Shown in pieces: positions 7,119 through 58,544 of a DNA stretch of 64,000 nucleotides. Origin of the DNA: Clostridia bacterium (lineage in GTDB: Bacteria > Bacillota > Clostridia > Oscillospirales > Acutalibacteraceae); the NCBI GenBank assembly GCA_017472225.1, contig JAFUQS010000062.1, positions 10,825 to 74,824 on the forward strand. The letters run 5' to 3'. The translations under genes and the position numbers were made by a program. Every line of letters begins with the position of its first letter. The first letter of the stretch is position 1. Below the pieces are notes generated by a model. The model made no database searches, was not told where the DNA came from, and saw nothing but the letters and a program-made list of their open reading frames with translations.

Positions 7119-7156
7119 AAAAAAATCCTTGAAATTACAGAACGTAACTTCAAGGA
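7119..7156 (-). terminator. Intrinsic terminator of T-box leader 2
   Basis: Minus-sense UCCUUGAAGUUAC-GUUCU-GUAAUUUCAAGGA (13 bp, one GU pair) followed by U7. Confidence 0.85.
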
Positions 7157-7395
7157 CGAATAAAATCCGTGGTACCACCTTGTTTACCGCAATATTACGG
7201 TCACTCTTCAAGACTCTGACAAGTCTTTAGCCATGATAACGGGGCATCCGTGACTGCCTACACAACAAATTGCCTTCAACAGTCCTGCTCGGAAATGAGA
7301 CTGAATAATCATCTCGTATCGGTTCGCACCAACCACCGACTCTCTTAAACCAAAGAATAAAAATTCATAATTTCGTCAACGCATTTGTGATATTG
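7119..7395 (-). promoter_or_regulatory. T-box riboswitch leader, specifier CUC (Leu)
   Basis: Minus-sense elements: base UGCGUUGACGAAA...UUUCCGAGCA (K-turn-like GA motif); AG bulge/distal loop AGAGAGUCGGUGGUUGGUGCGAACCGA; specifier loop GU-CUC-A directly before the lower helix UUUC (codon 7297-7299); Stem II GACUG...CAGUC; Stem III AAGACUUGUCAGAGUCUU; T-box core AAACAAGGUGGUACCACGG (7165-7186) with a UGGU bulge; then the terminator. Confidence 0.8.
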
Positions 7396-22553: not shown

Positions 22554-24515
22554 TTACATCATACTTTTCAGCTTTTCAATTTTATCTCTGAGCATAGCAG
22601 CATATTCAAATTCAAGAATCTTAGCAGCATCCTTCATTTCAGCAGTAAGTTGTCTGATAGTCTTTTCTTTATCTATACGTGAAAGACGCTTGAATTCCTT
22701 ATCGGTATCAACTGCCTTGGTTGAAATTTCGAGGACATCCCGCACCTGCTTGATAATGGTCTGCGGTATAATTCCGTGCTTTTCATTGTATTCATTCTGA
22801 ATTTTACGTCTGCGCTCAGTCTCTGTTATGGCATATTCCATCGAGGGGGTTACACAGTCAGCATACATTATAACTTCACCGTTAGCATTTCTTGCTGCAC
22901 GGCCGATTGTCTGCACAAGAGATGTTTCCGAACGCAGAAAGCCTTCCTTATCAGCGTCGAGAATTGCCACAAGTGATACTTCAGGAATATCAAGACCTTC
23001 ACGAAGCAGATTGATGCCAACAAGCACATCAAACTCACCAAGGCGCAGGTCACGGATAATTTCCATACGCTCCATCGTATCCACATCATAATGCATATAT
23101 CTGACCTTTATGCCCAGGTCATCAAGATAATCTGTCAATGATTCCGCCATTTTCTTTGTAAGTGTAGTAATAAGAACTCGCTCATTTCTTTCAACTCTCA
23201 TATTGATTTCACTTACAATATCGTCAATCTGACCCTCTGTTGGTTTAACGGTAATAACCGGGTCGAGAAGACCTGTGGGTCTTATAATCTGTTCAACAAT
23301 CTGTGAGCTTTTTTCTTTTTCAAAAGGTCCCGGAGTGGCACTGACAAACACCTTCTGTCCGACAAGTGAATAAAACTCATCGAATTTCAAAGGTCGGTTA
23401 TCAAATGCCGAGGGCAAACGGAATCCGAAATCTATAAGGCTTTCTTTTCTCGACCTGTCACCGCCGTACATTGCTCTGAGCTGCGGAAGCATTACATGAG
23501 ATTCATCAACAAACAAAAGAAAATCATCAGGGAAATAGTGGAGAAGCGTAAACGGTGCTTCTCCGGGCTCTCTGCCTGCCATAATTCTTGAATAGTTTTC
23601 AATGCCCTTGCAAAAGCCTGTTTCCTTGAGCATCTCAAGGTCATAGAGAGTTCTTTCTTTTATTCTCTGAGCCTCAAGCAGCTTACCTTGCTTGGTGAAT
23701 TCAATAACACGCTGCTCCATTTCATACTTGATTTCAGCCATTGCACTTTCAAGCTTATCAGGCGAAACAACATAGTGCGATGCAGGATACACGGCAACAT
23801 GAGAAAGGTTATTTTTGATTTCACCTGTCAATGGGTTTATCTCGGAAATTCGGTCAATTTCATCACCGAAAAATTCAACTCGTATTGCCGTATCACTTGT
23901 GTAAACAGGATAAATTTCAACAACATCGCCACGGACTCTGAATTTGTTTCTTACAAAATTAACATCGTTTCTTTCATATTGTATTTCAACGAGCTTTGTG
24001 ATAAGCTCATCTCTGCTTTTTTCCATGCCGAGTCTTAATGAAATCACCATGTTGCGGTAATCAATAGGATTACCGAGAGAATAAATACAGGATACACTTG
24101 CAACTATGATAACATCTCGACGCTCGGAAAGTGCCGAGGTTGCCGAGTGTCGCAGCTTATCAATTTCATCATTGATAGCTGAATCTTTTTCTATATAGGT
24201 ATCCGTTGTAGGAATGTAGGCTTCCGGTTGGTAATAATCATAATAGGAAACAAAATACTCAACAGCATTCTCAGGAAAAAATTCCTTGAACTCGCTGCAG
24301 AGCTGCCCCGCCAAGGTTTTGTTGTGAGCAAGGACTAAAGTAGGTCTGTTGACCCTGGCAATTATATTAGCCATGGTGAAGGTTTTACCTGAACCGGTAA
24401 CGCCCATAAGAGTCTGCTCTTTATAGCCTTTATTGATACCCTCAACAAGGCTGTCTATTGCTTCAGGCTGATCTCCTGTCGGCTTATAAGGTGAAACAAG
24501 CTTGAATTTATCCAC
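22554..24515 (-). CDS. uvrB: Excinuclease ABC subunit B
   Basis: 653 aa. [14 protein letters not shown], and a C-terminal UVR domain ([20 protein letters not shown]). GTG start with SD GGAGG 7 nt upstream. Confidence 0.97.
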
Positions 24516-24532
24516 GGTAAAACCTCCTTTGT

Positions 24533-24551
24533 GAACATTTGTTCTATTATA
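24533..24551 (-). promoter_or_regulatory. LexA (Cheo/SOS) box abutting the uvrB -10 element
   Basis: GAACATTTGTTC (24533-24544, GAAC-N4-GTTC) lies 1 nt downstream of minus-sense TGaTATAAT (-10 at 24546-24551). Confidence 0.75.
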
Positions 24552-24594
24552 TCATAGTGTTTTAAAAAAATAAAGAGTTATACGGATATTTTAT

Positions 24595-24625
24595 AAAAAA
24601 ATCCCCAAACAAATCTGTTCAGGGA
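24595..24625 (-). terminator. Intrinsic terminator (minus sense) downstream of radC and the structured element
   Basis: Minus-sense UCCCUGAACA-GAUU-UGUUUGGGGA (10 bp including 2 GU pairs) followed by U7. In the plus sense the same positions are C-A mismatches, so it is oriented for the minus strand. Confidence 0.75.
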
Positions 24626-24634
24626 GAGCGTTTT

Positions 24635-24841
24635 GTTAAGTTGGCGGGAGTCGAACACGATATGTCTCAAATGTCCGATTTCACACGCATTTGAAATTTT
24701 CAAAGTTTAATGAGAGGGTATTTTTTCTGTAACAAGGCATAAATTCGATGGAAGACTTGCGTCTTTCGAGAATTTTAACGCAGTTACGGGGAAAATAGAC
24801 CTCATTAAACCATATCGGATTCGGCTCCCGCCAACTTAATC
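24635..24841. ncRNA. Unclassified rod-like structured element of about 205 nt (candidate ncRNA; a MITE-like palindrome is not excluded)
   Basis: Nested helices: 24636-24655/24820-24839 (20 bp); 24658-24664/24811-24817 (7 bp); 24705-24714/24801-24810 (10 bp); 24719-24733/24783-24797 (15 bp); 24742-24746/24770-24774; apical 24752-24756/24761-24765 with loop TTGC. There is a one-sided 40 nt loop at 24665-24704 with its own 6 bp hairpin. The right arm contains the radC stop codon. Confidence 0.5.
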
Positions 24842-25594
24842 ATCTTCATCATCGGGAAACAAAGGATCAAGACCATAAAATATATGAGCAAACCTTGGCA
24901 TTTTCACCATAGAGTTAAACGATGTTTCAGAAACAATAATATGATCCGATAATTCAACCTTAAGCGAACGCAGCAGCTTATAGGCGGATTCCGTCACTGC
25001 AACATCCTCCCTTGAAGGAAGTGTAACACCGTGAGGATGATTATGAGAGATAATAACAGATGTTGCTTTTGTTTCAAGAACAACGGAAGCAAGCTTTCTC
25101 AAGTCAAACATGGAAGAAGAAATATCTCCTTCATTAAGCTTTCTGCATGCTATAAGATGATGCTGAGGGTCAAAACAAAGAGCATATACACATTCATTTT
25201 CGGTAATCGAATATTTTGACCTTAAGAATTCAACAAGGGATTCTGTATCCGTGTAATTGGGTTCAAGAAGCGAAAGGTTCTCAAGATATCTCTTATATAA
25301 CGGCAGAATCATATTGATAAGACAAGCAGCATTGTCTGTTATGTATTTATGTTTGGTGAGACTCGCTCTGTCTGCCTTTAAGACTGCTGAAAACGAACCG
25401 TAATAATCAATGAGCTCATGTGCTATTTTGTTCGTATCCCTTTGCGGAATAACAAAGTACAAAAGCATTTCAAGAACCTCATGGTCAGCAAGACCATCAA
25501 ATCCTCTGAGAAAAAATCCTTCTCTCATTCTTGTTCTGTGTCCCTTATGGGTGTTTTCAGTTTTATTGTTGCTGTCTGTTTTATTCTGTACCAT
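24836..25594 (-). CDS. radC: RadC-like JAB/MPN domain protein
   Basis: HRTRMREGFF, LLEMLLYFVIPQRDT and the JAMM motif IISHNHPHG. ATG 25594 (SD GGAGA 7 nt upstream) is preferred over the track GTG 25597. Confidence 0.88.
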   Translation of the reverse strand: MVQNKTDSNNKTENTHKGHRTRMREGFFLRGFDGLADHEVLEMLLYFVIPQRDTNKIAHELIDYYGSFSAVLKADRASLTKHKYITDNAACLINMILPLYKRYLENLSLLEPNYTDTESLVEFLRSKYSITENECVYALCFDPQHHLIACRKLNEGDISSSMFDLRKLASVVLETKATSVIISHNHPHGVTLPSREDVAVTESAYKLLRSLKVELSDHIIVSETSFNSMVKMPRFAHIFYGLDPLFPDDEDD

Positions 25595-56909: not shown

Positions 56910-58544
56910 TTAGCCTCCGATATTGCCATAAAGCACTCTTGCTGTGTTTTCCTGATGCTCAGCGGCTGTTTCGGCAAGATAAATTTCACCTGTTGAAGTA
57001 TCATGACAGAAGAAGTAATAGTCTGTATCAGCAGGATAAAGAGCAGCTTCAATAGCAGCCTTACCCGGGTTACAGATAGGTCCGGGAGGAAGTCCTGTCT
57101 GACTGTAGGTATTATACTTATCAAGATAAAGCGAATAGTAAACATCCGAGAAAAGATTGTATTCCTTGAGTGATGAAATATAATCTCTTGTTGAGTTCAT
57201 TTCAAGGTTGGGGTATGTTGCACTATCCTTAAGACGGTTATGAATAACGGATGAAATATCTGCCATCTGTGTGCCGTCCTTGGCTTCTCTTTGAATAATC
57301 GAAGCAATGTTGATAATCTGATCCTGTGTCATACCAAGCTCCTTGAGTCTTGTGCTGTATTCAGCAGTCCACCTTGACTCAAAGTTGTTGAAAAGCTTTT
57401 TAAGAACGGAGCTTGCATTTTCACCGATATAGAAATCATAGGTATCAGGGAAAAGATAACCCTCTGCCTTAAGATATCTTCCGCTTACATTTTTAATTTC
57501 TGAAATAAAGGTATACTGGTCACCTATAATTTCAAGGTTAGCATAAAGCTTTTCAGCCTCACAAACCTCATACTTTTCTATTTTCTCGAACACCTGAGCA
57601 ACGCTCCAGCCTTCAGGGAAGGTAAGACGGATTGTATCCTTTGCCACATTGCTTCTGACCATGATGCTTTCAAGCAGATTTTCGACACCGGCATCAGCAT
57701 CAAGATAATAAGAGCCCGGCTCATATTCTATTCTTCTTGTTTCAACAAAGGCTCCGTTTTTGTCGTAAATATCGACCTCGTCATAATGCCTGAATTTGCA
57801 GAATATATCCGTTATAAGCGGCTGCTTTATCAGACCCTTATCTGCAAGAATATTAAAGACCTCGTCATAGTCTGAGCCTTCAGGGATTTCAACATAAACA
57901 GATGATTGGTCATCAGAATTTATAACAAGAATGTCATTGATTACAGCAAGAGCCACCGTTGATGCGGTAACCGTAAGAATAGTGATGAAAATAAGACAAA
58001 CGCAGGTAACGAGCACACTCTGAACAAAGTTATACTTTCTTCTGCTTGTGCGCTTTTTTGCTTTTGAGGGAGCTGTACTTTTGCCCGACGGCTTCTGAGC
58101 TTTTGATGCAGTTCTGCCGTTTGCAGGTCTTTTTGCCGCAGCAGCTTTCGGATTGCCTGAAGCAGGTCTTCGCTGCGCCGACTGTCCTGTTCCCGATGCA
58201 GGTCTTCTTGCCGGCTGAGCTTGAGAAGCTCTCCTTGCCTGAGATGAAGCAGCCGTACCTGAGGGTCTCCTTGTCTGGGACGAAGCAGCACTTCTCGGAG
58301 CTGCACTTCTCGGAGCTGCACTTCTCGGAGCAGATGAGGGCTTGGTCACAGGGACATCATCTATATCGGGAATATGTAGCTCAAATTTTTTCGGCTTTGA
58401 TGCCATAGGAACGCCTTCAGAGGCACTTCTTGAATCAATATTAACACTGAAATCGCCTAATGACGGTGTTTTTGTGGGATAATATGAACCTGAATTCTGA
58501 CCGCCGAAGCCATCAGAACCTTCGTTGCGAAAACGATCATCCAT
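56910..58544 (-). CDS. mltG: Endolytic murein transglycosylase MltG (YceG-like) with a long basic low-complexity N-terminus
   Basis: 544 aa. TM helix, YceG core (FPEGW, ASIIQREA, NTYSQTGLPPGPICNPG). Confidence 0.88.
   Translation of the reverse strand: MDDRFRNEGSDGFGGQNSGSYYPTKTPSLGDFSVNIDSRSASEGVPMASKPKKFELHIPDIDDVPVTKPSSAPRSAAPRSAAPRSAASSQTRRPSGTAASSQARRASQAQPARRPASGTGQSAQRRPASGNPKAAAAKRPANGRTASKAQKPSGKSTAPSKAKKRTSRRKYNFVQSVLVTCVCLIFITILTVTASTVALAVINDILVINSDDQSSVYVEIPEGSDYDEVFNILADKGLIKQPLITDIFCKFRHYDEVDIYDKNGAFVETRRIEYEPGSYYLDADAGVENLLESIMVRSNVAKDTIRLTFPEGWSVAQVFEKIEKYEVCEAEKLYANLEIIGDQYTFISEIKNVSGRYLKAEGYLFPDTYDFYIGENASSVLKKLFNNFESRWTAEYSTRLKELGMTQDQIINIASIIQREAKDGTQMADISSVIHNRLKDSATYPNLEMNSTRDYISSLKEYNLFSDVYYSLYLDKYNTYSQTGLPPGPICNPGKAAIEAALYPADTDYYFFCHDTSTGEIYLAETAAEHQENTARVLYGNIGG
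58288..58331. repeat. 15 bp direct tandem repeat, about 3 copies, inside mltG
   Basis: GCACTTCTCGGAGCT repeated at 58288, 58303 and 58318. It encodes (PRSAA)x3. Confidence 0.85.

Follow-up and report, generated by a model that had tools for sequence, protein, structure and literature searches.

The radC-uvrB spacer and its palindromic element

The stretch analysed here (hereafter the window) comprises 64,000 nucleotides of Clostridia bacterium contig JAFUQS010000062.1 (Acutalibacteraceae), and the subject of this analysis is a 202-nt palindromic element placed at 24637..24838, in the spacer between radC and uvrB, which most probably represents a mobile repeat. Both genes are encoded on the minus strand, within a dnaE-pfkA-radC-uvrB-uvrA block. 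The radC gene (24836..25594) codes for a RadC-like JAB domain protein of 252 amino acids counted from its ATG (Pfam PF04002, E 1e-29), and its stop codon overlaps the end of the element, while UvrB, identified by means of Pfam, is encoded at 22554-24515. The exact RadC protein was present on seven metagenome contigs, which points to an uncultured source organism, and its nearest named homologues came from metagenome-assembled genomes of Acutalibacteraceae. A terminator scan located the ancestral intrinsic terminator of radC at 24602..24625 of the minus strand, with a T-run reaching to about 24592, now 11 nt downstream of the element. The uvrB promoter, also on the minus strand (24533..24554), is composed of an extended -10 sequence (TGATATAAT) directly followed by a LexA/Cheo-type box (GAACAAATGTTC), which we take to be an SOS box from what is established for Firmicute LexA sites. 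This promoter/LexA block was nearly invariant in an alignment (A2) across four species, and uvrB appears to be SOS-regulated in this clade.

The first-pass annotation, made from the letters of the window, had described an extended hairpin between uvrB and radC, and both its sequence and its coordinates were found as described. The plus-strand RNA of 24635-24841 presented a minimum free energy (MFE) of -95.7 kcal/mol, compared with -43.8 +/- 3.9 kcal/mol in shuffled sequences (z -13.5; 0/200 shuffles as low), and the minus-strand RNA one of -79.1 kcal/mol (z -9.3; 0/200). The helices of 7, 10 and 15 bp and the UUGC loop listed at first were borne out, while the closing helix has 21 bp instead of 20 (24635-24655 with 24820-24840) and the apex is made of helices of 2, 6 and 8 bp instead of two of 5 bp. 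The closing helix is followed by a second helix (5′ strand CGATATG at 24658..24664, 3′ strand CATATCG at 24811..24817), whose position was also found in three of the relatives described below (L048, L049, and L028). Then comes the one-sided 40-nt loop (24665..24704), which does hold a hairpin of its own, of 8 bp (24667-24674 with 24687-24694), and finally the long rod of the right-branch hairpin (24703..24810), with its 10-bp helix (24705-24714 with 24801-24810), its 15-bp helix (24719-24733 with 24783-24797) and the apical helices. The four T-G pairs reported at 24651/24824, 24725/24791, 24726/24790 and 24728/24788, the last three of them within the right branch, were all present in the plus-strand fold. 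The plus-strand MFE structure contains eight G-U pairs against four in that of the minus strand, an excess that is not significant in the window sequence alone (binomial p ~0.4-0.55).

The terminal arms constitute an inverted repeat (I2) of 29 nt, 90% complementary, with no difference between the arms over the outer 15 nt. The left terminal inverted repeat (24639..24656, AGTTGGCGGGAGTCGAAC) supplies the 5′ strand and the right one (24819..24836, ATTCGGCTCCCGCCAACT) the 3′ strand of the closing helix, both read on the plus strand. Outside the left repeat lies a TA (24637..24638), a putative duplicated target or the terminal dinucleotide of the element, and outside the right repeat a second TA (24837..24838), which on the minus strand gives the first two bases of the radC TAA stop, the third base (A) being that of the element. 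The stop codon (24836-24838) is, as had been noted, inside the closing helix, and the scan confirmed the minus-strand terminator beyond it. The element has no coding capacity, since stops occur in all six frames and the longest open stretch, of 52 codons, is devoid of a start.

Insertion relative to related species

The same gene order was found in three related species (L007/L008, L010, and L012), whose RadC proteins are 74, 68 and 65% identical to that of the window; their radC-uvrB spacers measured 113, 128 and 131 nt, compared with 320 nt in the window. The RadC C-terminus, the terminator, the uvrB extended -10 and the GAACAAATGTTC box formed conserved blocks that flank a clean gap of ~205 nt, so that the terminator and the uvrB SOS promoter were kept in the three species without the element, which was absent both from their radC-uvrB spacers and from their examined flanking sequence. 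Since the window spacer is longer than those of the relatives, and the terminator, promoter and LexA box align around a clean gap, the window spacer, set against the three relatives sampled, carries the element as an insertion. Moreover, deletion of the element together with one TA reconstructs an empty site, GATGAT-TA-ACAAAACG, in which the TAA stop is preserved, and the RadC C-termini of the relatives end within 1-2 residues of the end of the window RadC. The uvrB promoter and LexA box, downstream of the terminator, are left unchanged by the insertion.

A dispersed family of TA-flanked inverted repeats

The 19-nt arm, used as a pattern against metagenome contigs, returned 23 loci (cited here by L numbers), nine of which also carried the partner arm and were true relatives. 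This first group included a bare hairpin of 48 nt (L025), a 153-nt form (L020) and forms of ~283 nt, the latter at at least three different flanks (L014/L030, L028/L032/L033, and L016/L022), and the same 19-mer ended elements of 48, 153 and 283 nt. The interiors of these copies looked unrelated to that of the window copy. The second group was found by means of the longest open frame through the element, which was translated and searched in protein collections; five spurious small open reading frames (ORFs) from that search led to contigs with clear homologues of the window element. The copies of this group are L048:445-722 (278 nt), L049:5074-5351 (278 nt), which is abutted by a partial second copy, L052, cut by the contig end, L050/L051, partial, and L053, internally deleted to ~155 nt. 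Furthermore, BLAST with the 283-nt form revealed, in the cultured organism Vescimonas fastidiosa MM35 (pMM35_01; L036:2975-3259, NZ_AP023416.1:189619-189909), a copy of 68% identity that begins 3 nt past the stop codon of the gene for a gamma carbonic anhydrase. Profile searches with nhmmer linked all groups, Vescimonas included, at E-values of 1e-13 to 1e-17, and the window insert matched the family profile at E 1e-51. The full-length profile matches established the common orientation window(+) = L028(+) = L048(-) = L049(-), overturning the equivalence of the window minus strand with the L028 plus strand that had been drawn from a 45-nt BLAST extension.

Full-length copies have 278-283 nt and share one layout. 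A TA is followed by a closing helix of ~20 bp and by a second, short one; next come a hairpin branch of ~105 nt (the left), a mini-hairpin of 3 bp and a further hairpin branch of ~109 nt (the right), after which the return strands lead to a final TA. The window copy was 74% identical to L048:445-722(-) over 198 aligned positions, with a single gap of ~77 nt, and its alignment to L048 and L049 identified 24665..24704 as the remnant of a left branch that has lost its 5′ half and apex, the remainder refolding as a small local hairpin. The one-sided 40-nt loop is thus due to the deletion of ~77 nt of the left branch. These comparisons demonstrated that the element belongs to a dispersed family of TA-flanked inverted repeats, found at unrelated loci of gut Oscillospirales, and that the window carries an internally deleted member. 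Between subfamilies with diverged interiors, the termini were the most conserved sequence. Termini of the family read TA-AGTTGGCGGGAGYCGAAC, TA-GGCAAACGGGACCCGAAC and TA-CCATCGGTTGACAAGGGC. Two other ideas about the family were discarded: a conserved small protein in the 283-nt relatives, whose frame is broken by single-base indels in Vescimonas, and an origin of the two halves as inverted duplicates, which was not demonstrable beyond the termini.

A separate observation concerned L014:7908-8190 and L020:4094-4246, whose left flanks were ~88% identical and whose first 113 nt of element were 99% identical, L020 differing by an internal deletion of 130 nt and by another right flank. This pattern suggests a recent exchange or conversion between copies.

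Evidence for mobility

Every copy of the family is bounded by TA at both ends, and the next outward base differs between loci, no near-identical empty site being among the sequences compared; the two abutting copies of L049 have a single TA in common. The subfamily marked by TTAGGCAARCGGGAC occurred at four different flanks (L049, L052, L050/L051, and L053), and internal-deletion derivatives that kept both termini were represented by the window copy, L020, L053 and L025. In the window, in L014 and in L025, flanking genes have stop codons that overlap the TA(A), as expected of an element that seeks TA. At L022:2241-2276, a convergent ORF of 156 amino acids runs 11 codons into the element (…KLAGAEHHRF*), which has replaced the C-terminal end of the gene.

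Indirect evidence came from assembly behaviour. Two independent Logan assemblies (L002 and L003; k = 31) both stopped at the equivalent of window position 24809, exactly 31 nt past the base that stands before the TA of the element. In Logan, a contig is a path without branches through a k = 31 graph, each 31-mer being unique there (bioRxiv 10.1101/2024.07.30.605881), and no 30-mer is common to the two arms. A break at this very base would be expected if the sequence from the TA onward recurred elsewhere in the sample, and such recurrence is indicated indirectly by the observed one; the graph node at issue in SRR12529360 is TAAGTTGGCGGGAGCCGAATCCGATATGGTT.

Considering that the element is an insertion relative to related species, that TA flanks it and that unrelated loci hold homologues ending in the same termini, it is most probably a non-coding, non-autonomous mobile palindromic repeat resembling a MITE (a transposable element of miniature size with inverted repeats), inserted at the TA of the radC TAA stop in this Acutalibacteraceae-like lineage. 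The first-pass annotation had offered a MITE-like insertion with ~20-bp terminal inverted repeats as its main alternative, and this is what the comparative evidence favours. The element is small and non-coding, bears terminal inverted repeats and shows presence and absence at a conserved site. No cognate autonomous insertion sequence (IS) with the same termini was found among the metagenome matches, the neighbouring genes or the phage, plasmid and viral collections; BLAST of the element against phage and plasmid collections gave no match, and pattern scans of viral contigs returned nothing or chance matches. Many accepted bacterial MITEs are likewise without a known partner (PMC2229807). The TA flanks, together with the precedent of RUP and IS630-Spn1 (PMC2229807), suggest that the family would be mobilised in trans by a TA-targeting DDE transposase of the IS630/Tc1-mariner-like type, which would recognise the conserved termini and duplicate the TA. 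Because the element begins with A, its insertion into TAA would have regenerated the stop codon and left RadC unchanged.

The conserved, strand-biased right branch

Several observations weigh against a mobile repeat. Neither the loci nor the neighbouring genes yielded an autonomous element or a transposase with such termini, and no true family match among the 23 metagenome loci exceeded 283 nt. Only one copy was found in the 64-kb window, and that of Vescimonas was the sole one in its 860-kb replicon. A two-arm pattern run against 185,579 representative genomes gave three matches, all attributable to chance and inside coding sequence, the pattern fitting the 207-nt length only, so that it would miss copies of 278-283 nt. 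The duplication of the TA is itself putative. The Vescimonas copy, although flanked by TA, ends in termini that have the same length (28 nt) and an unrelated sequence (10/28 matches), its homologous interior having been retained while the termini were replaced. In addition, L048 and L049 are both placed upstream of tRNA-Leu(GAG), on the strand of the conserved hairpin, which looks like vertical retention with structure-preserving change. Several copies were located 100-330 nt from tRNA genes (L048:264-348, L049:4854-4937, and L053:~64-135).

The right branch adds to these points. In a comparison of eight copies from 5-6 lineages, 90% of the right-branch cells paired, and compensatory changes, with both sides changed, were found in 23 of the 37 pairs, compared with 9.6 +/- 2.1 in shuffles (0/500 reached 23) and with 5-10 when partners were slid. 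Strand-specific U-G pairs, alternating with C-G, were kept at the same columns, including 24725/24791, 24726/24790 and 24728/24788, and the ratio of G-U to A-C cells was 27:5 in the plus-sense orientation. The RNAalifold consensus of the right branch reached -30.0 kcal/mol in plus sense vs -14.3 kcal/mol on the opposite strand, the plus-sense branch being the more stable in 8/8 copies. Similarly, a covariance model of the branch (R1) gave 89-113 bits in plus sense vs 18-38 bits on the other strand, and matched the window hairpin on the plus strand only (92 bits, E 1e-22). It also recovered, at 70 bits, a solo right-branch hairpin next to a full element (L033:1887-1999, minus strand) on which it had not been trained. 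The 283-nt relatives contained 12 internal compensatory pairs. The asymmetric wobble pairs, which had been put forward as an argument for selection on a plus-sense RNA, are by this alignment a real, inherited trait of the family, and not by themselves proof of a plus-sense RNA gene. Across these copies, the right-branch structure is far better conserved than a passive palindrome requires, which was unexpected.

The compensatory pairs, the U-G columns kept in 5-6 lineages and the Vescimonas interior retained between replaced termini raise the possibility, rather doubtful at present, that purifying selection maintains the ~109-nt hairpin as a folded nucleic acid specific to one strand, either RNA or single-stranded DNA. 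In one form of this reading it would be a structured RNA module, mobile and exerting its effect on the host transcripts that it enters; in the other, a structured transposon end recognised as a single strand. Neither Rfam nor the MITE reviews consulted describe such a class.

The same data bear on a broader proposal, in which the family is primarily a functional structured RNA of plus sense, a small RNA (sRNA) or a cis-acting mRNA element, whose dispersal is secondary, the window copy being partly deleted, possibly active and antisense to the radC 3′ end. Covariation, G-U bias, consensus energies and R1 scores all agree with it, as does the Vescimonas interior. It is nevertheless unlikely. The promoter scan found no promoter-like site upstream of the element on the plus strand of the window, in agreement with the first-pass annotation, and the flanks differ at every locus, so that a conserved promoter outside the element is not possible. 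The orientation to neighbouring genes is inconstant, antisense to radC in the window, while in Vescimonas and L014 the element has the sense of the gene upstream. The left-branch consensus has no strand preference (-26.4 vs -26.4), and, taken as whole elements, the L048 and Vescimonas copies are about equally stable on either strand; a mirror-image preference of the two branches, drawn from per-sequence energies, was abandoned on account of this left-branch consensus. The window copy is without most of one branch and others have been cut to 48-155 nt with their termini kept, which speaks for propagation of the termini and not of the fold. Finally, the element is absent from the three related species. 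An independent sRNA gene is thus presumably not what the window holds.

Movement or action as folded single-stranded DNA, in the manner of integron attC sites, IS200/IS605-type elements or rolling-circle single-strand origins, would account for a strand-specific hairpin with G-T pairs, for the conservation of its asymmetry and for a large orientation-specific structure without a promoter. This explanation is considered highly improbable, given that inverted repeats of 20-29 bp and flanking TA dinucleotides mark the element and are foreign to IS200/IS605 and attC, which instead have subterminal hairpins on one strand and specific flanking tetranucleotides or R/L boxes, that no HUH/Y1 transposase, integron integrase or plasmid context was present at any locus, and that the left branch shows no asymmetry. 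The defining motifs of integron attC, dif/Xer sites and the CS-6 of ssoA were absent from the element.

Known RNA families and other identities

The Rfam searches offered no family for the element. At gathering thresholds, only a T-box leader passed in the whole window (7149-7388, minus strand; 121 bits vs a gathering score of 93). At E<=10 on 24300-25100, nothing credible covered the element on either strand, and neither of the two families that the first-pass annotation had in mind, 6S RNA and the radC motif, was matched. At E<=1, no family was found in L020, L022, L025, L028, L036, L048 and L049, the best match being a microRNA model at 16.8 bits. The radC RNA motif is also disfavoured by position, as the element lies 3′ of radC and not in its 5′ untranslated region (UTR). 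A 6S-like or plus-sense sRNA was not supported: besides the lack of an Rfam match, of a promoter and of the element itself in the three relatives, its bubble is the one-sided remnant of a deleted branch.

The 3′ strand of the arm (GTTCGACTCCCGCCAACTTA) loosely resembles a T-loop plus acceptor end, which is a likeness only. An origin of the arms from tRNA or tmRNA was rejected, since ARAGORN reported nothing in the window, the T-stem does not pair and only a trivial tmRNA fragment match of 10 bits was obtained. A literature search with the arm sequence returned only cloning primers for 2A peptides. Elsewhere in the window, 58281-58331 holds three tandem 15-nt units (CGGAGCTGCACTTCT-like) with 90% identity, probably a coding repeat.

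The element and the radC transcript

As a MITE-like repeat, the element would now be co-transcribed with radC in minus sense, as a passive passenger of the 3′ UTR between the stop codon and the old terminator. By analogy with Correia and ERIC elements, its ~20-bp terminal duplex and the fold of -79 kcal/mol may be processed or may alter the stability of the radC mRNA. A stronger version, compatible with a MITE origin, holds that it has been co-opted as a 3′-UTR element, the terminal helix around the stop serving as a target of RNase III or RNase E, or as a barrier to 3′ exonucleases, that sets the radC mRNA level. Placed between the radC stop and the conserved terminator, it must share the radC transcript; the RNA of minus sense still forms a stable fold, and family copies often stand directly after stop codons. 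Precedents are provided by Correia elements, cut by RNase III at their inverted repeats (PMC2229807), and by ERIC at the 3′ ends of Yersinia genes, where decay is altered, with RNase E as the enzyme involved (PMC10969869). Such co-option is distinctly improbable here, because the radC locus gives no sign of selection, carrying a deletion derivative that is absent in relatives, and because the conserved hairpin stands within the radC mRNA in its weaker orientation.

Significance

The assignment removes a candidate sRNA from the window and leaves RadC and the uvrB SOS promoter intact. It brings to light a repeat family of uncultured gut Oscillospirales (Acutalibacteraceae-like, Vescimonas, and others) for which no earlier description was found. 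Short-read assemblies are interrupted by this family at a point that can be predicted; its copies lie on stop codons and can extend genes by C-terminal residues, L022 being an example. Moreover, its covarying, strand-biased hairpin offers a test case of whether selection acts on the folds of bacterial MITEs, as RNA or as single strands, or whether these are only inherited. The object is otherwise of an ordinary kind, a decayed copy of a MITE-like repeat whose hairpin is unusually well conserved and strand-biased.

Comparison with known systems

The element shares with 6S RNA a length of ~200 nt and a mostly rod-like shape. In 6S RNA, the product of a single housekeeping gene that relatives conserve, the central bubble is two-sided and imitates an open promoter, whereas the window element is a dispersed repeat whose one-sided bubble is a deletion scar.

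The family resembles ERIC in being an imperfect palindrome that occurs in transcribed regions near gene 3′ ends, in either orientation, the effect of ERIC on decay depending on its fold (PMC10969869). ERIC differs in its length of 127 bp, its restriction to Gammaproteobacteria and its unrelated sequence, and the window family has two long branches. The Correia/NEMIS elements of Neisseria also have TA flanks, size variants that arise by internal deletion, and frequent co-transcription with neighbouring genes; their inverted repeats of ~26 bp form a long duplex in read-through mRNA, the stem of which is cut by RNase III (PMC2229807, PMC10969869). Their sequence is unrelated, and they are elements of 100-155 bp, with IHF sites and promoters and hundreds of copies per genome.

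The closest parallel is with RUP and other IS630-type MITEs, which are likewise small and non-coding, with terminal inverted repeats, insertion at TA, a long stem-loop, an intergenic or gene-end location and a Gram-positive host (PMC2229807). RUP has 107 bp, repeats that match those of its partner IS630-Spn1 and ~100 copies per genome, whereas the window family has no known partner IS, a copy number that is possibly low, a full length of ~280 nt and a conserved, branched interior fold.

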